In this document: positions 5,783 through 61,477 of the stretch, piece by piece
How the letters are laid out: each line of letters begins with the position of its first letter
How positions within the stretch are numbered: position 1 is the first letter of the stretch
Source: Bacteroidales bacterium
Lineage (GTDB): Bacteria > Bacteroidota > Bacteroidia > Bacteroidales > 4484-276
Direction: 5' to 3'
Length of the DNA stretch: 64,000 nucleotides
Assembly: GCA_035647615.1 (NCBI GenBank)
Contig: DASRND010000003.1
Span: 195,135 to 259,134, forward strand
Program-made: the position numbers and the translations under genes
The notes under the pieces: generated by a model
Seen by the model: only the letters and a program-made list of their open reading frames with translations
What the model was told of the DNA's origin: nothing
The model's database searches: none

Positions 5783-7957
5783 TCACATTTTGATTATTCT
5801 TCCAATGGCAACGGTTTCTCCGCTGTTAATTTTTAAAAGATAAATACCTTTTTTCAATGAACCCATTTCTATGCAGTGATGGTTTTCAAAAGGAGAATGC
5901 AGGATCGAGCGATATACCACCTCACCGGTAAGGTTTATGAGTTCCACGGTTTGCAAGCCGGATTTACTTTCGATGTACAATTTATCACGCACTGGATTGG
6001 GAAATGCTTTAACATCCAAATTTTCTAGCTCAAATACGCTACTCACCACCGTAACCTGAACAGAGTCGCTGTGCGAACAAACACCATGATTCACCTGCAC
6101 CCAGATGTTCCATTCGCCAGGTCCCAATTCCCCACCGATAATCCGGATCGCATTGGATGTGTCGCCGGTTGACCAGAGGTAGTGTTCATAAATATCCGGC
6201 AGCGTCAGGGTAAGCGTATCGTGAAGTGCAATGGCCGTGTCGGCTCCCAGGTCGATTGTAAATCCCGGCTGGATGTCGATGGTTATGGTATCGTATTGCC
6301 AGCATCCGTAATCGTCAGCAGCCGAAAGTGTATAGGTGCCAGGCTCCGTAACGCTATACCAGCTTTTATCGGATAGCTCGTTATTCCAATAGTAATATGC
6401 ATATCCTTCCGGCCCATTCAAAATTGTGCTGTCGCAAACGGTTTCATCCGGGCCAAAGCTAAACTGCGCGGGTGGATGCCGTTGCATTTTCAGCAGCAAG
6501 CCGTCCGCTATCCATCCCATATAGGAATGAAGGGTGTCGTTTTCAAGTTTTAATGTACCCTCGAAATTTGCCGAAAACAGGATTTGTTTACAATTATCCA
6601 ACATGAAATTTTCAGGCTGCAGAGACCTTGAACTATAGGGAATATAAAAATTGCTAATCTCTCCTTGAGGCGAAATCTGTCCAAACGCTGTGCGGGGATA
6701 AGCATACACCATGGTAGTATCGAAAATTGTGACAGTACCTTGCATCCCACATGCGAAGTACAAGGTATCCTCGTAAGCGTCCAGAGAGAAATACACATAT
6801 CCATAAAAAGGAATGTACCACAACGACTCCCAATTTTCGTTAAACATAGTCAGGATAGTCTGTGGGTTATTTTCGTCATAGAAAAGCGTATCATTACCAA
6901 TAATCATGGTATCTCTCACAGCTGCTGAGAAATAGAATTGACCCTTTTCATCGATAACTAAATCTCTCATTATCATTTTCCATTCGAATATTTTCCCTGT
7001 ATGCGTGTAACCGGCTGAATCGAATGTAAGTACGAATGAACGGTCTTTAACAAATCCTTGTCCGGGATCGGGATGCATAATGGTGTCATTTGAAATAATG
7101 AGATTTGTTCTGGTTCTTCCATACACTACAAACCTGTCGCCATCTACCGAAATAAAATTTCTCTTATCCACATTAAGGTATCTATCGCTATCCATTGCTA
7201 CCGAATCATTCTTTTGATTATTTGTGTAAGAATCGCCGTAAAATGATTCCCTCCAAATGAGGTCTCCCGTGGTTTTGTCCATTTTGAGAATGGACGATAA
7301 AACCGTATTGGAAGAGATTACCGAATCCTGTCCAAAATATCGCACGGTATCGGTTTCGTAAGCCCACGATGTATGGGTGGTGTTTAGATAAAGATATCCG
7401 TCGTTGCCTACATACATTCCGGCGCACAAGTCATCGGTATTACCGGAAATGAGTTTGATGTATTCAATATTTAAATCAGAAGAAAGTTTGATTATTGCGA
7501 GATCCCGCCTGTGAAATACGAGCGGCCCGGTTTCTTCATCCCGAATTACACTATCCTGAATGCTCATCCAGTTAGCGAATGGACAGGCGAGATAGATATT
7601 ATTGTCGCGATCGGTTGTCATTGCCGGATCAATCCAATAGAAACTGGCCGAATCTGTAAACAGGTCAAGCGCAAACAAACAATTCCCATCGGGGTCGAAT
7701 TTGGCAATGGCTGCATTGTGCGCAATATTTCCGGCGGAAGGGTGCGCAAATAAGGTGTCGGGCAAGAAAATGGAATCCTGATAATTGACATTTACAAAAA
7801 CATTATTGTAAAAATCGGTGTGAAGAATTTCTGTCTCACTGCGATCCCCTTTTTGAGTAAAGGACACATTCCACAGAGGCTCGAAACTTTGGGCACAGAG
7901 GTTAACCTGGAAGCTAATCGTTAAAAGAAGCAAAGGTAAGATAAAATACTTTTTCAT
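5783..7957 (-). CDS. secreted protein with T9SS C-terminal sorting domain, function unknown
   Basis: Start taken at MKKYFILPLLLLTISFQVNLCAQ (signal peptide, ATG 7957) rather than the ORF-track start at 8080. The C-terminus FPNPVRDKLYIE..KKGIYLLKINSGE..RIIKM is a T9SS CTD. Confidence 0.75.
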   Translation of the reverse strand: MKKYFILPLLLLTISFQVNLCAQSFEPLWNVSFTQKGDRSETEILHTDFYNNVFVNVNYQDSIFLPDTLFAHPSAGNIAHNAAIAKFDPDGNCLFALDLFTDSASFYWIDPAMTTDRDNNIYLACPFANWMSIQDSVIRDEETGPLVFHRRDLAIIKLSSDLNIEYIKLISGNTDDLCAGMYVGNDGYLYLNTTHTSWAYETDTVRYFGQDSVISSNTVLSSILKMDKTTGDLIWRESFYGDSYTNNQKNDSVAMDSDRYLNVDKRNFISVDGDRFVVYGRTRTNLIISNDTIMHPDPGQGFVKDRSFVLTFDSAGYTHTGKIFEWKMIMRDLVIDEKGQFYFSAAVRDTMIIGNDTLFYDENNPQTILTMFNENWESLWYIPFYGYVYFSLDAYEDTLYFACGMQGTVTIFDTTMVYAYPRTAFGQISPQGEISNFYIPYSSRSLQPENFMLDNCKQILFSANFEGTLKLENDTLHSYMGWIADGLLLKMQRHPPAQFSFGPDETVCDSTILNGPEGYAYYYWNNELSDKSWYSVTEPGTYTLSAADDYGCWQYDTITIDIQPGFTIDLGADTAIALHDTLTLTLPDIYEHYLWSTGDTSNAIRIIGGELGPGEWNIWVQVNHGVCSHSDSVQVTVVSSVFELENLDVKAFPNPVRDKLYIESKSGLQTVELINLTGEVVYRSILHSPFENHHCIEMGSLKKGIYLLKINSGETVAIGRIIKM

Positions 7958-51665: not shown

Positions 51666-52127
51666 ATGAAAAAAATTGGATTCATTGTCGCTTTGCTGGC
51701 ATTGGTGCTGGGTTTGGCCTTTACCATCAACAGCATCGTTAAGGGTCTTTACGTCGAAATGGCAATCTTTGCCACCATGGCGAGCATGGCAATTTTTTAT
51801 TTGCTCTTTCAGCTACTAATAAACAGACAAAAGAAAAAAGGAATCGTTCCAAGGCCTGTTCCCACGCTAAATCCTCCACTACCCGATGAAATGATCCTCT
51901 CGCCCGGTATTGATAAAATTTTCAGATACGTGTGGAAACACATTAAACTAATAGCTGTGGTGTCTATAATTTTTATTTTGAGCTATAATTGTTGGATAGT
52001 GAAAACGGAGGATACATTGGCTATAATATACTTTTCATTTTGTTTGGGCATTGTTCTGGACTCCGTCATCTTTTTATTTTACAAGAAACTTAAACATAAG
52101 AAGGAGCCAATGGCCGAAGCTCTTTAG
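51666..52127 (+). CDS. small integral membrane protein, function unknown
   Basis: A 153-aa protein with four hydrophobic segments and no recognisable motif. Confidence 0.5.
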   Translation: MKKIGFIVALLALVLGLAFTINSIVKGLYVEMAIFATMASMAIFYLLFQLLINRQKKKGIVPRPVPTLNPPLPDEMILSPGIDKIFRYVWKHIKLIAVVSIIFILSYNCWIVKTEDTLAIIYFSFCLGIVLDSVIFLFYKKLKHKKEPMAEAL

Positions 52128-52207
52128 CAATAGTAAATAACGGAGGCTTTCTTTTTAGGCTTTCACCTCCCTGGCAAACTTTGTATTTTCCAATTTTAGT
52201 AAATAAT

Positions 52208-52240
52208 AAAACCCCCGATGGAACTCCGCCGGGGGTTTTT
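52208..52240 (+). terminator. rho-independent terminator
   Basis: CCCCCG (52212-52217) pairs with CGGGGG (52230-52235), followed by TTTTT and preceded by an A-run. Confidence 0.65.
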
Positions 52241-52364
52241 CAATTAACCACAAAGACAAAAGAAAAAACCGCGGAGGCGGAGAGACGCAGAGAGAAAAGG
52301 ACAAAAAAGCTTTGCGCCTCTAGGGTGAATCTGTTTTCTTTTACCCCCCCGTTCCCTGCTTTTT

Positions 52365-52895
52365 TTACTTAATCTTCTCCAGATTTTTCATCCCATCAAT
52401 GTTCATCGACTTGGAGAGTTTGGCGATGGTTTTCAGGTCGATGTTGCCGGTGATGCTGATGAAGCCTGCTTCGTTGGGCTGGTTGATGATCAGCAGCAGC
52501 TCGTTGATGTTTTTGCCATTTTTGCGGATCATAAACTTCACCGATTCGCCCCCCTCGTTCACGGTCATCAGTTCCGAAAAATCTTTCAGCTTCACACCGT
52601 TGAGTTCGTTTTTGAATTCTATGAGCCTGAGCGACTGCACTGTGTCTTCCAACATTAGTATGCGGATGTATTCGAGTCCCTGCACCACTTTGTTGAGTTC
52701 CTGCATATCCTCGCCTTCGGCCTCCTGCGTTATTTCGGCAAAAAGGCTGAAGAGTTCTTTGGTAACATGCACGGTAGTAAAACCGTCTTTGGCGCCATAC
52801 TTATCAAAAAGCGCATCCGTAACGTTTTGTGCTTGCGCCGTAGCTCCCGAGAGCATCAGCACAATTGCAGCGGCAATCATTGTGATTTTTTTCAT
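52365..52895 (-). CDS. DUF4252-domain secreted protein
   Basis: Signal peptide, then DALFDKYGAKDGFTTVHVTKELFSLFA. It occupies the typical third position after an ECF sigma factor and a TM protein. Confidence 0.7.
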   Translation of the reverse strand: MKKITMIAAAIVLMLSGATAQAQNVTDALFDKYGAKDGFTTVHVTKELFSLFAEITQEAEGEDMQELNKVVQGLEYIRILMLEDTVQSLRLIEFKNELNGVKLKDFSELMTVNEGGESVKFMIRKNGKNINELLLIINQPNEAGFISITGNIDLKTIAKLSKSMNIDGMKNLEKIK

Positions 52896-54338: not shown

Positions 54339-55895
54339 ATGTTCAAAGGACACCCTAAGGGTTTAATTCCAGCGTCGCTTGCCAACATGGGCGAACGGTT
54401 TGGATTTTACACAATGATGGCAATTTTAGTGCTGTTTTTGCAAGCAAAGTTTGGATTAAGTGGTACAAATGCCGGATACATTTATTCGGGGTTCTATTTT
54501 TCCATTTACATCCTCGCGCTGGTCGGCGGAATCATTGCCGATAGAATCAAGAATTTTAAAGGAACCATTTTCGCAGGTTTAATATTAATGGGAGTCGGCT
54601 ATGCTATTATGGCTTTCCCAACACCAACACCTGTTCCCAATCTCCCGCTATACCTGTCCTTATCCATTTTTGGGTTATTTGTAATTGCTTTTGGCAATGG
54701 CTTGTTCAAAGGAAACTTACAAGCTCTGGTTGGACAAATGTATGATAATGAAAAGTATGGCAAATTAAGAGATTCCGGATTTTCATTGTTTTATGCCTTT
54801 ATTAATGTTGGAGCTATTTTCGCGCCTTTTACCGCACTTGGTATCAGAAACTGGTGGCTTGGCACCAATGGTTTTGTTTACAACGCAAGTCTTCCCGAGC
54901 AATGTCATACTTTTTTAGATCCGGGCAAAGTTATGTCGGCCGAAAACATTGCCAATTTCCAGAATTATGCTAATGAAGCGGTTGTTGGTAGTGGTACTGT
55001 AACTGATCTTACTGCTTTTGCCAACGAATACTTGAATGTATTCAGCACAGGCTTCCATTATGCATTTGGTATTGCAATTATTGCTATGCTAATTTCTACA
55101 GTTATTTACTTGGCCAACAAAAAGAAATTCCCCAATCCTGGAACTGTAAAAGTTTCGGGAGATGGTACTATTACCGAAGAAATAAAAATGGAAGCTAAGG
55201 AAGTAGCCCAACGAATTTATGCCTTATTAGCTGTTTTTGGTGTGGTCATTTTCTTTTGGTTCTCGTTTCATCAAAATGGCTTAACACTAACATTTTTTGC
55301 ACGAGACTATACCGATCTAAGCCTTTTTTCTTTTACAATATTTGGGCTTAAATTTGAAGGTGCTGAGATGTTTCAATCTATGAATCCGTTTTTCGTGGTT
55401 TTCTTAACGCCTATTATAGTAGGTTTGTTCGGATGGTTACGCTCACGAGGTATAGAGCCATCAACGCCTAAGAAAATCGCCATTGGGATGGGTATTGCCA
55501 GTTTGGCATTTGTACTTATGGCTATCGGATCATTGGGTCTGCCTTTGTTTTCTGACATTAGCTCATCCCAAGGTGGTACTCCGCTCCTCGATGCAGAGCG
55601 CGTTACACCATTCCTCTTGTTTGGAACCTATTTTATCTTAACCGTTGCTGAGTTATTTATTAGTCCCATGGGAATCTCGTTTGTTTCTAAAGTTGCGCCC
55701 CCACAATTTCAGGGCATGGCTCAGGGCGGATGGCTTGGAGCAACAGCTTTGGGTAATGGCCTGTTATTCATCGGTGCTATCCTTTACGAATCGATTCCAA
55801 TTTGGATGACCTGGAGTATTTTTGTAGTCGCTTGTGCCATTTCGATGCTGACGATGATCTTTATGTTGCGTTGGCTCGAAAGAGTGGCCAGATAA
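54339..55895 (+). CDS. proton-dependent oligopeptide transporter (POT/PTR2 family, MFS)
   Basis: GHPKGLIPASLANMGERFGFYTMMAILVLFL and GGIIADR are the PTR2 signatures. It has about 14 TM segments. Confidence 0.85.
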   Translation: MFKGHPKGLIPASLANMGERFGFYTMMAILVLFLQAKFGLSGTNAGYIYSGFYFSIYILALVGGIIADRIKNFKGTIFAGLILMGVGYAIMAFPTPTPVPNLPLYLSLSIFGLFVIAFGNGLFKGNLQALVGQMYDNEKYGKLRDSGFSLFYAFINVGAIFAPFTALGIRNWWLGTNGFVYNASLPEQCHTFLDPGKVMSAENIANFQNYANEAVVGSGTVTDLTAFANEYLNVFSTGFHYAFGIAIIAMLISTVIYLANKKKFPNPGTVKVSGDGTITEEIKMEAKEVAQRIYALLAVFGVVIFFWFSFHQNGLTLTFFARDYTDLSLFSFTIFGLKFEGAEMFQSMNPFFVVFLTPIIVGLFGWLRSRGIEPSTPKKIAIGMGIASLAFVLMAIGSLGLPLFSDISSSQGGTPLLDAERVTPFLLFGTYFILTVAELFISPMGISFVSKVAPPQFQGMAQGGWLGATALGNGLLFIGAILYESIPIWMTWSIFVVACAISMLTMIFMLRWLERVAR

Positions 55896-55990: not shown

Positions 55991-56020
55991 TGAGAAGCAA
56001 TGAACGATTAACACTTGCCC

Positions 56021-56060
56021 TGCGGTGATTGAGCCTGTCGAAATCAGCGTAGTCGAAGGG
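56021..56060. repeat. ~40-nt hairpin-like motif TGCGGTG..TGAGCCTGTYGAAA.., copy 2
   Basis: It is similar to 22981-23020 and is flanked by the direct repeat AACGATTAACA (56004-56014 and 56064-56074). Confidence 0.4.
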
Positions 56061-56082
56061 AACAACGATTAACAAACAATTA

Positions 56083-57030
56083 ATGCAGCCAACATTTCCC
56101 TGGGGACACACCCGTCGTTTTAACGCTTACGCGCAATATTTCGAAAGGATTTTTGGCGGTCGTGTGCAAAAAGTTACCATCGACGCGGGCTTTACCTGCC
56201 CCAACCGCGATGGCACCAAAGGTCTGGGCGGCTGTACCTATTGCAACAACGATGCTTTCAGCCCCTCCTATTGTTCTCCCGAAAAAAGCATTACACAACA
56301 GATCGAAGAAGGAATCGTCTTTCACGCCAATCGCTACCGCCGTGCTTCTAAGTTCCTGGCTTATTTTCAGGCTTACTCCAATACTTACGACACGCTCGCC
56401 AATTTGCGCCGCCGCTACGATGAGGCGCTTCAAAACGAAAATGTAGTCGGGCTGGTGATTGGTACCCGCCCCGACTGCATCGATGAAGAGAAGCTGGAAT
56501 ATTTTGCACAGTTGGCCCGGACGCATTGGGTCATCATCGAATATGGCATCGAGTCGTGCTACGATGCTACACTCAAGCGCATCAACCGTGGGCATACTTT
56601 TGCGGAAGCCGAAAAGGCAATTCGCCTCACGGCTGATTATGGATTGAAAACAGGCGCGCATCTTATCTTCGGTTTACCCGGCGAAACCAGCCAAATGATA
56701 CTCGACGAGGCAGCAATTGTTTCATCATTGCCATTAACAACCATAAAATTCCATCAACTACAAATTGTAAAAAACACCGTGATGGAGCGGCAATATCGGC
56801 AGCAGCCGGAAGATTTTAGATTTTTTAACCTTGACGAATACATCGATTTGGTCATCGATTTTTTGGAGATTCTCAGTCCCGCTATTGTTGTCGAAAGGTT
56901 TGCTGGTGAAGTGCCTCCGCGTTTCATTGCCGGGCCTCACTGGGGGTCGCTGCGCTACGATCAGATTCTGAACGCCATCGAGCAGCGGCTTCTGCAACGT
57001 AATACATGGCAGGGTAGGTTGTTTTTGTAA
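56083..57030 (+). CDS. TIGR01212-family radical SAM protein (YhcC-like)
   Basis: [20 protein letters not shown] is the cluster motif characteristic of TIGR01212, and [10 protein letters not shown] is also present. The protein is 315 aa. Confidence 0.85.
56761..57014 (+). repeat. 254-bp direct repeat, copy A (3' end of the radical SAM gene)
   Basis: It differs from 57717-57970 at only 2 positions (T/C at 56848 vs 57804; G/A at 56876 vs 57832) in my base-by-base comparison. Confidence 0.9.
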
Positions 57031-57111
57031 AAAGGCAGTACGCGATAAAGCGCAATGCTAAGAAAACTCAGGAAAAAGCCAGGCAGTTTTTATTACGGCC
57101 TGTGCAGATGG

Positions 57112-57137
57112 AAAAAAAAACCGGTGAAACCACGGGC
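57112..57137 (-). terminator. terminator of the 147-aa membrane protein gene
   Basis: The minus strand has the bulged stem CCGTGGTTTCACCGG followed by TTTTTTTTT. Confidence 0.5.
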
Positions 57138-57180
57138 TTTGATTCATTGATATCTTTTTAATTGGGTAATTCTTGAAGAA

Positions 57181-57624
57181 CTAACTGCTGTAGAATTCTT
57201 TGCCAGGGGATTTGATAAGATCCCACAAAGCTCCCAGAATGAACAAACAATACCCGACTAACATTCCGGCACAGAACATCAACCCGAGTCCTATTCGTGT
57301 GTGGGGTGTATTCCAACCATTTATACCAAAGGTTAAACATAATCCGAAGATCAAAACAAAATTAAATAATAATGCAAAGATTTTTCTCCTATTAACCGTT
57401 TTTGCATTTTCATTCCTCAAGGATTCATTGTCTGGAGATTTGTTAAAAAACCGCGGAGGATCCATAATGTACACCCCAACCCAGGCCAAATATCCAGAGC
57501 ATGCCATCAACACGAGTCCTATTAGTGTGTGGGGTGTAAACCAACCATAAGTACCAAAGGTTAGACATAACACGACGCAGAGAACAAAAACAAATCTTCT
57601 TGCATTTCTATTTTTCAAATTCAT
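57181..57624 (-). CDS. 147-aa four-TM membrane protein with internal tandem duplication, function unknown
   Basis: ATG start. The two halves align: LCLTFGTYGWFTPHTLIGLVLMACSGYLAWVG against LCLTFGINGWNTPHTRIGLGLMFCAGMLVGY. Confidence 0.55.
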   Translation of the reverse strand: MNLKNRNARRFVFVLCVVLCLTFGTYGWFTPHTLIGLVLMACSGYLAWVGVYIMDPPRFFNKSPDNESLRNENAKTVNRRKIFALLFNFVLIFGLCLTFGINGWNTPHTRIGLGLMFCAGMLVGYCLFILGALWDLIKSPGKEFYSS

Positions 57625-57716
57625 AGTTTTGGGAGTTTCAATGGTTTAAAAACTGTTTTTAATTTCAATAAGATATCAATGTCAAAGGAAGTTCAAAAAT
57701 AGGAAAATTTTCAAAC

Positions 57717-57983
57717 CAAATTGTAAAAAACACCGTGATGGAGCGGCAATATCGGCAGCAGCCGGAAGATTTTAGATTTTTTAACCTTGACGAATACATC
57801 GATCTGGTCATCGATTTTTTGGAGATTCTCAATCCCGCTATTGTTGTCGAAAGGTTTGCTGGTGAAGTGCCTCCGCGTTTCATTGCCGGGCCTCACTGGG
57901 GGTCGCTGCGCTACGATCAGATTCTGAACGCCATCGAGCAGCGGCTTCTGCAACGTAATACATGGCAGGGACGTGCGTTATAA
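57717..57983 (+). pseudogene. duplicated 3' fragment of the radical SAM gene (254-bp direct repeat copy B plus divergent last codons)
   Basis: It encodes the same last ~80 aa (..[26 protein letters not shown]) but ends RAL instead of RLFL. It has no N-terminal radical SAM domain. Confidence 0.8.
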
Positions 57984-58032
57984 AACATTGTTGACGAAAG
58001 CGAATTTTTATTGGTTGTAATATCCAAATGTT

Positions 58033-58040
58033 TACTTTTG
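58033..58040 (+). promoter_or_regulatory. -7 promoter box TACTTTTG upstream of 58100
   Basis: It matches TAnnTTTG and lies 60 nt upstream of the ATG. Confidence 0.4.
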
Positions 58041-58099
58041 CAGTTAATTCATTTTAAACCTTGTATTAATTATTTTATAAATCTAAATCAAAAAACATT

Positions 58100-61000
58100 A
58101 TGCTTAAAAAGTTACAAATGATCGTAGTGCTGATGGCCCTTTCTGTGGTAACATTTGCACAAATTAATGAAGACTTTGAGAGTTACAATGCTGGTGAACA
58201 ACTCGTTACACAAGCAATAGCTCAGGGTCTTGATTACTGGACAACCTGGAGTGGAACCCCGGGTAGCGCGGAAGACCCTATGGTATCCTCTGCCCTTGGA
58301 ACAAAATCAGTGGTTCTTGAAGGAACTAACGATGCTGTTCTTTTGCTTGGCGACAAAACCTCTGGCGTTTTCAACCTGGAATTTGATTTTTACGTCCCGG
58401 CAGGAAAATTTGGATACTTCAATGTTTTGCAGGTATTTGCCGGTGCAGGCAGCGAATGGGGTATGCAAGCCTTTTTTGATGCTGGTGGTGTTGGTTCTGT
58501 GGATGCTGGTGGCGAAGGTGCCGGATCATTCACCTATAGCTACGACACCTGGACTCCTGTAAAAATGCTCATCGACCTGGACACCGATTTCGCTGAAATG
58601 TGGGTGAATGGCGCAAGCGTTATTACCTGGACATGGAGTGGTGGAACATTTGGTACCGGAACTATAAATCAGCTTGCTGCTTTTGGCATTTTCGCCTGGG
58701 ACGAGAACGGAACTCCCGGTACTCACTTCGACAACATCTCATTCGAGCCTGTTTCTTCTGTTGAAATCTTTGACAATTTCGAAGCTTACAATGCTGGCGG
58801 AAAACTCGTGCAGCAAGCTTTGGCTCAGGGCATCACCTACTGGACCTGCTGGAGCGGCGACGGTGGCGCTGGTGGCGCTGAAGATCCCACTGTAACGACT
58901 GATCAAGCTAACAGCGGCAGCAATTCATTCATGATCGATGGTACCAACGACGTGGTTATTAAATTGGGCGACAAAACTGCAGGTAAATATTCCTACGATT
59001 TTTACATGTATGTTCCCACCGGATTTGTTGGTTATTACAACATGCTGCAAAACTGGAATCCGGGTGGCAGTTCTGCTACATGGGGTTTGGAAGTTTATTT
59101 CGATCCGGGTGGAAGTGGCAAAGTAAATGCCGCCAACACTACTCCTTTAACAACATTTAACTATCCCTACGATAGCTGGATTCATGTAGAGAATATCATC
59201 AACCTGAATACTGATAACGCTGTTGTCAAAATTAATGGTACCGAGGTAGCTTCATGGGAATGGAGCATCGGCGCTTCGGGCGGTGGTGTCAACAAATTAG
59301 CTGCCGCTGACTTTTATGCTGCTGCTACCAACGGAACACCAAAATTCTATGTGGACGATGTGATGCTTACTGAGCTGGAACCTGCTGTAGGCCCTTCCGA
59401 AATTACTGTTACACCCGCATCTTTCAGCTTCGATCTGGAAGCTGGTGCTTCTACTACCAAAACCCTAACAATCGGCAACGATGGTATTGCCAAGCTCGTT
59501 TGGGCTGGTTATCCCGAATATGCAATGGGAAAAGCAGCCAATTTCACACCTGTTGATTATTCAAATATCAGCATTTCTGAAGTTGCAGTTGTAGAAACCA
59601 ATGGCTCGGCCAGCCCTGAAGCTACCGACGACCAGGTGATATTGCATTATGACGGCGACAATGCCAACGCTGTAGGTCTTACCAGTGGCGGTTCCTTTGA
59701 AGTAGGTGCGAGATTCCCGGTAACGACGACCAACAACTATATTGGAATGGCAATTTATGAAGTTCAGGTTTGGGTAAATGACTTTGTAACTGCCAGTGCT
59801 ATCAAGATTTATGGCCATGGTACTGAAGGACAGGCTGGCGAGCTTCTGCATGAACAAGCCTTCGCAGCAACTATAGGTTGGAACAACGTAGGTCTTAATA
59901 CTCCTATCGACATTACTGGTGGCGACATCTGGGTTGCACTTGCCCTCTCGCATGATGAAGGTGTATTCGTAGCTGGTTGCGATGGAGGTCCTGCCGTTAC
60001 CAATGGCGACTGGTTTAAGTCGGGCGCTGCCTGGGTGCCAATGCACGTGGCGAATCCCGCACTTGATGCTAACTGGAACATCCGCGCTGTAGCCGAAGGA
60101 ACTCCTACGTCGGGCTTTATGACCCTCAATCCGGCTTCCGGCCAGATAATGTCAGGCGAAACAACCAACGTTACTGTTACTTTTGATTCCGATGGTTTGA
60201 CCATGGGAACTTACAATGCCAATATCGTTCTCAATAGCAACGACCCTGTAACCCCGCAGAAAATGGTTCCTGTAACCCTCAATGTTACAAGTGCTGTCAA
60301 CTTCCCGGTAATCAATGTAAATCCAATATCCTTGGAATTTGGACTTGGTTATAACTCCCAGGAAACCCAGTCCTTGAATGTTTCAAACGTTGGTAATGTT
60401 AATCTTAACGTTAACATGAGCATTACCTATGGTGAAGATGCACTTGCACCTGTAACAACTCCGGTTGAAGAATACATAAATGTAATTAACCCCGAGCAGC
60501 TTAGCCTTGCCAACACCGCTAATCCAACTCCATCGCCCAACGTTACCGATGATTTTGTAATACGTTACGACAATGGTGTTAACGATGATGCTATCGGACT
60601 AACCTCGGGTGGTACCTTCGAGGTTTCAGCTTATTGGCCTGCTGCTACTATGGGTCAATATGCAGGTATGGATCTTACATCTGTCGAAATTTACATCAAC
60701 GATCCACCTACTTCCAGTGTCCTGAAAATTTACGGTCAGGGGACTGCTACTGTTCCTGGTACATTGCTTCACCAACAAACTCTTTCTGTTAATCCGGTTG
60801 CATGGAATATTATCCAACTTTCAACTCCGGTTACCATTACCGGCAATGATATCTGGATTGGCTACGAAGTAACCCACGCTACTGGCATATATTCTCCTGG
60901 TTGTGATGCAGGCCCTGCAGTTGCAGGCTATGGCGATATGATTTCGCTGGACGGTGTAAGCTTCGAGCCTATGTCGGCCTTAGGTCTTAACTACAACTGG

Positions 61001-61477
61001 AATATTGCCGCTACCATTAGTGGTGAAGCTCAGGTGGAGTGGTTGAGCATCAACCCAATGTCGGGTATGGTAACCCCTGGCAACATGCTTCCTTTTGATG
61101 TTACAGCCGACACAGAACCCTTCGATGGACCTACAGATGAAACTTATCATGCTTCTATCTGGATTGCCTCCAACGACCCGGCCACTCCAATGCTGGAAGT
61201 GCCCGTAACGCTTGAATTCCCTGTAGGAATGAGAGACCTTTACAGCGATGCTTATATGATGATGTTCCCCAACCCTGCCAACAACATGGTTAACCTTTCG
61301 ACCAACTATGCCATGAGCAATGTTAAGGTTGTTAATCAACTGGGTCAGGTAGTATTGGAGCAAACACCAAACAGCAAAACAGTAATTGTAAATACAGCCC
61401 AACTCCAGGCAGGTATTTATTTTGTGAAGGTTACCTCCGAAGCCGGACAATCCACTCACAAGCTGGTTATCGAATAA
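58100..61477 (+). CDS. 1125-aa modular secreted protein with T9SS C-terminal sorting domain, function unknown
   Basis: It has a signal peptide and two pairs of internally duplicated modules. The CTD reads MFPNPANNMVNLST..GIYFVKVTSEAG. Confidence 0.75.
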   Translation: MLKKLQMIVVLMALSVVTFAQINEDFESYNAGEQLVTQAIAQGLDYWTTWSGTPGSAEDPMVSSALGTKSVVLEGTNDAVLLLGDKTSGVFNLEFDFYVPAGKFGYFNVLQVFAGAGSEWGMQAFFDAGGVGSVDAGGEGAGSFTYSYDTWTPVKMLIDLDTDFAEMWVNGASVITWTWSGGTFGTGTINQLAAFGIFAWDENGTPGTHFDNISFEPVSSVEIFDNFEAYNAGGKLVQQALAQGITYWTCWSGDGGAGGAEDPTVTTDQANSGSNSFMIDGTNDVVIKLGDKTAGKYSYDFYMYVPTGFVGYYNMLQNWNPGGSSATWGLEVYFDPGGSGKVNAANTTPLTTFNYPYDSWIHVENIINLNTDNAVVKINGTEVASWEWSIGASGGGVNKLAAADFYAAATNGTPKFYVDDVMLTELEPAVGPSEITVTPASFSFDLEAGASTTKTLTIGNDGIAKLVWAGYPEYAMGKAANFTPVDYSNISISEVAVVETNGSASPEATDDQVILHYDGDNANAVGLTSGGSFEVGARFPVTTTNNYIGMAIYEVQVWVNDFVTASAIKIYGHGTEGQAGELLHEQAFAATIGWNNVGLNTPIDITGGDIWVALALSHDEGVFVAGCDGGPAVTNGDWFKSGAAWVPMHVANPALDANWNIRAVAEGTPTSGFMTLNPASGQIMSGETTNVTVTFDSDGLTMGTYNANIVLNSNDPVTPQKMVPVTLNVTSAVNFPVINVNPISLEFGLGYNSQETQSLNVSNVGNVNLNVNMSITYGEDALAPVTTPVEEYINVINPEQLSLANTANPTPSPNVTDDFVIRYDNGVNDDAIGLTSGGTFEVSAYWPAATMGQYAGMDLTSVEIYINDPPTSSVLKIYGQGTATVPGTLLHQQTLSVNPVAWNIIQLSTPVTITGNDIWIGYEVTHATGIYSPGCDAGPAVAGYGDMISLDGVSFEPMSALGLNYNWNIAATISGEAQVEWLSINPMSGMVTPGNMLPFDVTADTEPFDGPTDETYHASIWIASNDPATPMLEVPVTLEFPVGMRDLYSDAYMMMFPNPANNMVNLSTNYAMSNVKVVNQLGQVVLEQTPNSKTVIVNTAQLQAGIYFVKVTSEAGQSTHKLVIE

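Follow-up and report, generated by a model that had tools for sequence, protein, structure and literature searches.

The stretch of DNA analyzed here, a 64,000-nt window from a metagenome-assembled genome of a Bacteroidales bacterium (NCBI MAG), harbors the radical SAM gene mnmL, the 3' end of which is present a second time behind a small membrane-protein gene. The 315-aa open reading frame (ORF) of mnmL matched the NCBIfam model TIGR01212 with 312.6 bits (cutoff 180) over residues 12-314, and Pfam found the domains Radical_SAM and Radical_SAM_C. Judged by these profile matches, the interrupted gene encodes the TIGR01212 MnmL/YtqA radical SAM tRNA-modification enzyme. A preprint places this family in mnm5s2U synthesis (bioRxiv 10.1101/2023.12.21.572861). 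Downstream of the second copy follows a gene for a cargo protein of the type IX secretion system (T9SS). The features are listed in Table 1; loci of relatives are cited by L numbers.

Table 1. Features of the mnmL locus in window coordinates. X- and Y-type refer to the two arrangements described in the text.
Feature	Position	Strand	Remarks
mnmL/ytqA, 315 aa, intact	56083..57030	+	Y-type body (like L004); last 4 codons and stop X-type
Repeat copy 1	56761..57014	+	codons 227-311 of functional mnmL
X-type gene end (..RLFL and stop, context TTTTTGTAAAAA) and downstream spacer	57015..57070	+	assigned by alignments
Degenerate bidirectional terminator-like hairpin	57112..57137	.	between convergent mnmL and p147
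p147, small membrane protein	57181..57624	-	four hydrophobic segments, internal duplication
Native upstream (presumed promoter) region of small-membrane-protein operon	57625..57716	-	92 bp
Right junction, 12-nt microhomology CAAATTGTAAAA	57717..57728	+	common to operon upstream region and mnmL codons 227-230
Repeat copy 2 and Y-type gene end	57717..57983	+	displaced promoterless mnmL 3' fragment
Ancestral intergenic region and T9SS cargo gene (1125 aa, Por_Secre_tail by Pfam)	57984..61477	+	collinear with Y-type empty loci

A repeat search and a MAFFT alignment revealed that 56761-57014 and 57717-57970 form a direct repeat of 254 nt with two mismatches. At repeat position 88, copy 1 has T and copy 2 has C (TTG/CTG), a synonymous difference with Leu in both copies; at position 116, G in copy 1 and A in copy 2 result in Ser (AGT) and Asn (AAT), respectively. 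Copy 1 closes the 315-aa ORF, which ends with ..WQGRLFL; copy 2 reads on to a TAA at 57981-57983 and ends with ..WQGRAL. The spacer between the copies comprises 702 bp (57015-57716) and carries a 147-aa ORF, p147, on the minus strand. Weak similarity (AAAATT..CA..AC) is also present 5' of each copy; on the copy-2 side it belongs to the native p147 upstream region. An earlier sequence-only reading had described the same anatomy, namely two differences of these kinds, different last residues, the 702-bp spacer with its minus-strand gene, weaker similarity upstream of each copy and, on the whole, an A-insert-A structure enclosing a self-contained cassette, and this description was borne out.

The layout of repeat, insert, and repeat (A-B-A) was assembled in at least eight ENA samples (L001-L003 and L098-L102), in L084, and in the NCBI MAG, and p147 together with copy 2 and both neighbors, the copy-1 end and the beginning of the T9SS gene, is contained in individual short contigs. 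The two copies of L084 can be distinguished by copy-1-specific differences 8 and 45 nt from the copy-1 tail, which phases mnmL, copy 1, p147, and copy 2 in this linear order.

Copy 2 covers mnmL codons 227-311 only and is located at the ancestral place upstream of the T9SS cargo gene. Its tail contains a premature TAA where all other Y-type tails have GAA (..RAL followed by E[ST]LS.). An in-frame stop codon is located 5' of copy 2 at 57669-57671; no ATG, GTG, or TTG occurs between this stop and 57735, and neither a start codon nor a promoter could be discerned for the fragment. In the public record, 57720-57983 is annotated as the 87-aa hypothetical protein HZK06869.1 with ATT at 57720 as its first codon. 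HZK06869.1 is a displaced gene end and not an independent gene.

X- and Y-type arrangements and the right junction

Two arrangements of the locus, here called X and Y, circulate in a Lentimicrobiaceae-like clade. In the Y arrangement (L004, L095, L096, and L097), a 319-aa mnmL with the end ..RA/TxE[ST]LS. is followed after ~96-99 bp by the T9SS gene, and these loci represent “empty” sites. In the X arrangement (L085 and L089-L092), a 315-aa mnmL with the end ..KRFL faces a convergent minus-strand operon consisting of p135/p137 and p292. The 3' halves of X- and Y-type mnmL share ~60-70% nucleotide identity, and nt 91-180 of the gene are 94-99% identical between the types.

The window is a hybrid of the two, with a Y-type mnmL body, an X-type end, terminator, p147, and promoter, and then a Y-type fragment. 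In 90-nt bins up to nt 900, its mnmL shares 80-96% identity with that of L004 throughout, without a step at nt 678, where the repeat starts; identity to X-type genes is 58-77% past nt 360. Copy 1 turns X-type immediately past TGGCAGGG, and from there on the gene end, the resulting 315-aa length, a spacer block, the terminator region, p147, and the 92-bp upstream region are all X-type. The inserted DNA contributes only the last four mnmL codons and the stop codon; both 254-bp copies are of the resident Y-type. From 57717 to 59500, the window is collinear with L004 at 87% nucleotide identity, copy 2, its tail, and the downstream region being Y-type.

Alignments of the first part of the spacer, 57015-57070, showed homology to the ends of 315-aa X-type mnmL genes and not to the Y-type end. 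An 18-nt block of the window spacer, AAAGCGCAATGCTAAGAA, also occurs in the spacers of L005 and L087. The terminator proposed by the sequence-only reading was supported in part: a weak imperfect hairpin followed by a U-run is present, and L085 and L089 carry a clean bidirectional hairpin at the equivalent place, but a consensus scan did not call the element and its fold was no better than that of shuffled sequence.

Residues 72-143 of p147 match its own first half with 47% identity, and hydropathy analysis yielded the four hydrophobic segments. No Pfam or NCBIfam family was found for p147; the sole matches, to DUF6232 and DUF1453, were weak or below threshold. Relatives at E≤1e-3 amounted to five representatives among 1.84 billion proteins. 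Homologues (p135/p137, 47-56% identical) are located behind mnmL in L085 and L089-L092 and define a clade-restricted family, which is confined to the mnmL-adjacent locus of this clade. A metagenome scan with this family returned two loci only, both with layouts already known. Homologues were seen only behind mnmL in this clade. In L089, one operon (6047-7761) consists of a 292-aa gene and, behind it, two tandem p147 paralogues with 135 aa each. The p147 gene of the window starts at the place, and with the upstream region, held by p292 in L085.

Homologues of the 92-bp region upstream of p147 precede p292 in L085 and occur twice in L089, as upstream regions P1 and P2. The window region contains the box TATTTTTG (complement of 57694-57701), which resembles the Bacteroidota promoter consensus TAnnTTTG, and presumably acts as a promoter.

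The upstream region natively reads ..TTTTCA(A/C)ACCAAATTGT(A/T)AAATCG.. in L085 and in P1 and P2 of L089. P2 of L089 has TTTTTCAAACCAAATTGTAAAATCGC, L085 and P1 of L089 have TTTTCACACCAAATTGTTAAATCG; both then part from mnmL, and the window stays mnmL. CCAAATTGT(A/T)AAA is native to the operon upstream region, and at this point homology to L085 and L089 stops and mnmL starts. The motif TTTTCAMACCAAATTGT, considered as an att core, was found a single time in the window, a frequency that does not exceed chance expectation; in L089, it is present in two homologous upstream regions and absent from the older junction of that genome, which is located ~110-150 nt from the motif. The right junction of the window is a microhomology join and not an att core.

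Recurrence, probable homogenization, and mosaicism

L084 shares the junction of the window, with 97.3% identity across 4.8 kb. Between its two copies, 6 of 103 positions differ (~6%), with three changes per copy, all of them derived as compared to L004; the three copy-2 changes are all synonymous. The event seen in the window predates the split from this 97%-identical relative.

Other relatives carry related scars. L005, L087, and L088 have an X-type full gene, a ~115-bp spacer, and a Y-type fragment which begins at codon 206 and shares 60-76% amino-acid identity with the window protein. This fragment is intact in L087 and L088; in L005, it contains two frameshifts and a stop codon. In L089 and L093, the order is an X-type full gene, a three-gene operon, an X-type fragment (from ~codon 165-180), a second upstream-region remnant, a Y-type fragment (from ~codon 220), and the T9SS gene. 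The second remnant is near-identical to the upstream region of the window, and the protein encoded by the Y-type fragment is 90% identical to that of the window repeat. Two stacked mnmL 3' fragments are thus found between operon and T9SS gene (L089 7770-8880, also L093), and the L089 stack documents, in layers, no fewer than two displacement events. Because of these layouts, the mnmL 3' end must have been displaced several times, at different positions (fragments starting at ~codons 165-180, 206, ~220, or 227, depending on the lineage) and with scars that can be stacked. Among the 80 closest species representatives, a fragment was found in L005 only; the phenomenon is limited to a small clade. 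The recent event considered by the sequence-only reading was not supported: relatives with diverged repeats, which that reading had itself named as counter-evidence, were found, in that the L084 copies are diverged, L005, L087, and L088 combine an X-type gene with a Y-type fragment, and L089 is stacked.

The two window copies differ at 2 of 254 positions, those of L001, L002, and L098 at none. If the copies had diverged independently since the split from L084, ~7 differences per 254 nt would be expected (estimated as 2.7% x 254 nt). A derived A at repeat position 246 is common to the two window copies; copy 1 of L084, L004, the L005 fragment, and fragment f2 of L089 have T there. Copy 1 carries the haplotype T88/G116 in the window, but four other assemblies have it in copy 2; in three assemblies, the copies are identical. 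Most likely, the near identity of the copies reflects homogenization and not recency. The sequence-only reading had considered the event either recent or maintained by gene conversion; conversion is plausible; recency is contradicted by the diverged L084 copies.

As the body of the working gene is Y-type over its whole length, copies 1 and 2 represent one allele. Intragenomic gene conversion and replacement of either copy by Y alleles of relatives are possible routes to this state; as a third route, the original join may have been at the conserved CGTAATAnnTGGCAGGG, so that copy 1 would have been Y-type from the outset. Since the region is strongly mosaic, allele import from relatives would serve as a route just as well as gene conversion. 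The pattern resembles concerted evolution by gene conversion in having 0-2 differences per 254 nt here as compared to 6/103 in the sister lineage, a shared derived base, and a mobile haplotype of two single-nucleotide polymorphisms; it differs in that allele import or assembler collapse could account for part of it.

Identity values along the region switch among relatives. The fragments of L087 and L005 share 98.6% identity over 209 nt and diverge by 28% past a sharp breakpoint. Between 57634 and 58134 of the window, L102 (1-967) departs from it only at the two haplotype sites; from a sharp breakpoint at 58135 on, within the T9SS gene, divergence is 13.5%. Three mnmL proteins are X/Y mosaics: in P0007 and P0008, the N-terminus is X-type and the gene otherwise Y-type, and P0009 (L087 80-1027) has a Y-type patch inside an X-type gene. 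Conversion of this patch from the L087 fragment itself was rejected, as its nucleotides do not match that fragment.

Probable displacement of the mnmL 3' end by host recombination

We regard it as the probable explanation, with some reserve, that the repeat is the scar of a displacement of the mnmL 3' end by host recombination between X and Y arrangements. The sequences directly show the anatomy, the allelic types of its parts, what the right junction reads, that the structure is conserved and recurs in relatives, and that the region is mosaic. Recombination pathway, order of events, and route of homogenization are inferred as follows. X-type DNA comprising gene end, terminator, p147, and promoter region would have been joined into the Y-type locus of an ancestor. 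The right join would have been illegitimate, inside the 12-nt microhomology between the operon upstream region and mnmL codons 227-230. As this join falls within mnmL, the old Y-type 3' end (codon 227 to the stop) would have been stranded ahead of the T9SS gene as a non-functional remnant, and the working gene would now end in an X-type tail. The structural alleles may then have spread among relatives by flanking homology.

Homology-facilitated illegitimate recombination combines a one-sided homologous anchor with a microhomology join and is known from natural transformation of Acinetobacter and Streptococcus. The term occurs in PMC6382021. The combination of anchor and microhomology proposed for the window would be the outcome to be expected from this process. 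Like it, the window case involves allelic DNA from a related-lineage donor, long homology on one side, 12-nt microhomology on the other, and no element recombinase. Sequences beyond the 12-nt CAAATTGTAAAA are unrelated, donor-type DNA is located between the junctions, and possible anchors exist in mnmL nt 91-180 (94-99%) and in fragment and T9SS gene (87%). Unlike the known cases, the window case concerns an uncultured lineage represented by metagenome-assembled genomes only and is deduced from comparative anatomy, and it keeps a 254-bp duplication, which needs a join within the resident gene plus an extra homogenizing step or a right-hand anchor.

One path would yield precisely the structure of the window and avoid any topological problem: the donor would already have carried the operon and a Y fragment, the anchor would lie in the fragment and the T9SS gene, and the left join would have occurred at the conserved CGTAATAnnTGGCAGGG of a Y-type recipient. 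Alternatively, the anchor may have been located upstream, with copy 1 converted afterwards, or a circle containing repeat plus insert may have spread by Campbell-type integration. Ongoing recombination between the repeats would be expected to yield a deletion junction at which mnmL 5' sequence is followed by copy 1 or copy 2 and then directly by ..GGGACGTGCGTTATAA.

Several points weigh against this explanation. The true donor is not among the available sequences, so that the left junction is placed approximately only; the copy-1 tail is linked to the X type by TTTTTGTAAAAA and the downstream blocks. An upstream-anchored event in one step would leave an X-type repeat in the full gene, as found in L005 and L089. 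Because the full gene of the window carries a Y-type repeat, an extra step or a right-hand anchor must be assumed. A layout like that of L089 may also have lost ~150 bp between two CAAATTGTAAAA motifs, which would make the junction secondary. Bubble-popping by the assembler in a 254-bp repeat could account for both the moving haplotype and the identical copies. Contigs are short, and that of L084 ends 103 nt into copy 2. Finally, the low ratios of non-synonymous to synonymous substitution rates (dN/dS) of the fragments (0.06-0.25), which we attribute to alleles imported from functional genes, might also reflect selection on the fragment.

Among the scenarios of the sequence-only reading, that of a new gene end displacing the old one comes closest to the evidence. 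Displacement by a new end was retained from it; an element bringing its own 254-bp copy was not, as the insert provides four codons and a stop.

Other explanations and the meaning of the scar

Campbell-type entry, in which a circle of repeat plus insert, released by exchange between the two repeats of a related, occupied chromosome, integrates by a single homologous crossover in the Y-type mnmL 3' end, would yield the A-B-A layout, the near-identical Y-type copies, and the Y-type full gene as observed, and homologous exchange is frequent in the region. However, it requires a prior A-B-A donor with Y-type repeats, so that it describes spread and leaves the origin unexplained; furthermore, a 956-bp circle must survive and be transferred. 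The ~6% divergence of the L084 copies indicates that integration was not recent, and no near-100%-identical empty or excised form is present in the protein cluster: the cluster at 90% identity, searched for an empty site in near-identical strains, holds 315-aa, 81-aa, and 87-aa forms only. An exact look-up of the window mnmL protein gave no match, although the cluster table lists an identical NCBI protein. We consider Campbell-type entry unlikely.

Retention of the fragment for a function, either as a stand-alone Radical_SAM_C protein or as a silent donor for conversion, might be deduced from the intact reading frames in the window, L087, L088, and both L089 fragments, from the low dN/dS (0.06 for window copy 2 versus L089 f2), from the exclusively synonymous copy-2 changes in L084, and from the Y-type patch in the L087 full gene. 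The L005 fragment, however, is disrupted by two frameshifts and a stop codon, and the orthologous 209 nt of L087 and L005 differ by three non-synonymous changes and two indels, with no synonymous change. Window copy 2 ends at a premature TAA as compared to every Y-type tail, no start codon or promoter is evident, the low dN/dS is found in segments imported from other alleles, and the L087 patch mismatches the fragment of that locus. A function of the fragment is therefore quite improbable.

A non-autonomous integrative cassette at an att site in the mnmL 3' end, mobilized by a recombinase encoded elsewhere and with the repeats as attL/attR, was judged very improbable. The A-insert-A layout with an intact target does resemble islands at gene 3' ends, the insert has its own promoter region and terminator-like site, and the motif TTTTCAMACCAAATTGT recurs in relatives. 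But the variable fragment starts reveal no fixed att core, the join of P2 to f2 in L089 is off the motif, and the motif copies are homologous upstream regions and not independent cores. Moreover, a 254-bp repeat far exceeds typical att cores, and the p147 homologues are found only behind mnmL in this clade. Neither a recombinase nor an integrase or transposase was found within ~15 kb (Pfam on flanking ORFs and precomputed Pfam on L001), and the insert encodes p147 alone. Plasmid and phage searches returned no match for the region or for p147, and all Rfam matches in the region were far below threshold. The statement of the sequence-only reading that no recombinase is visible thus proved correct over ~15 kb, whereas its suggestion of mobility gained no support, as junctions vary and the p147 family occurs at this locus only. 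Integrative islands and prophages at gene or tRNA 3' ends likewise leave an intact target with a new end, place the old end on the far side, and can be stacked as in L089; the window differs from them in having no integrase and no fixed att core, in its 254-bp repeat of resident-type sequence, and in its 0.7-kb single-gene insert, which is native to the locus in relatives.

Equally little credence is given to the mnmL 3' end as a selected hotspot of serial C-terminal displacement, at which new ends arrive together with small membrane-protein genes and old ends persist as silent cassettes exchanging with the working gene. Orphan modules in polymorphic toxin loci would be the counterpart, with the hotspot situated at a housekeeping tRNA-modification gene instead. 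C-terminal displacement in Rhs/CdiA proteins is similar in having a full gene, small genes, layered displaced 3' fragments, and alleles made mosaic by recombination at conserved sequence. It differs in that mnmL is a housekeeping gene for a radical SAM enzyme and not a polymorphic toxin with an immunity gene; the small genes are located on the opposite strand without family assignment, and there is no hint of toxin and immunity.

Recent tandem duplication, also considered by the sequence-only reading, was rejected: the sequences following the copies belong to different allelic lineages (X tail and Y tail) and do not form an A-B-A-B pattern, and L084 shares the structure with diverged repeats. 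An assembly artefact, i.e., a chimeric or mis-traversed graph mixing strain variants, is scarcely credible. In its favor, the window stems from a metagenome-assembled genome, the repeat is where several short contigs end, and the haplotype-bearing copy differs between assemblies; against it, the same structure was obtained from at least eight samples and two assembly sources, the L084 copies can be told apart and show the same linear order, and diverged relatives with unconfusable repeats share the architecture.

Upstream of mnmL, the window encodes a POT-family transporter and an ECF-type sigma factor; downstream, the 1125-aa T9SS cargo protein follows, and QueG, a glycoside hydrolase, TPR proteins, and other T9SS proteins are encoded farther away. 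The POT gene (54339-55895) is 58-76% identical to its counterparts in L004 and L085, which share 77-91% there, and the flanks of the window are 85-95% identical; this suggests that the transporter allele was replaced in the window lineage. Another variable segment is located near a 153-aa ORF (51666-52127), at ~52000-52390, where the aligned region has its left end: L004 and L085 are 96-100% identical to each other over ~450 nt, and the window aligns poorly (51-66%). Just 5' of mnmL, a purine-rich intergenic stretch contains a 20-nt direct repeat (GAAG..AACGATTAACA; 55994-56013 and 56055-56074, 80% identical, spacing 61), and L005 is repetitive at the same position.

The displacement of the mnmL 3' end represents a known kind of structural scar, not described so far at this locus. 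For annotation, it means that HZK06869.1 is a gene remnant and p147 is not the cargo of a mobile element. Near-identical repeats are no proof of recency, since the repeats of the sister lineage are ~6% diverged, and genome scans should be read with this caution. The locus provides an example of gene-order change without mobile-element machinery in uncultured Bacteroidota, in which displaced gene ends serve as datable scars.

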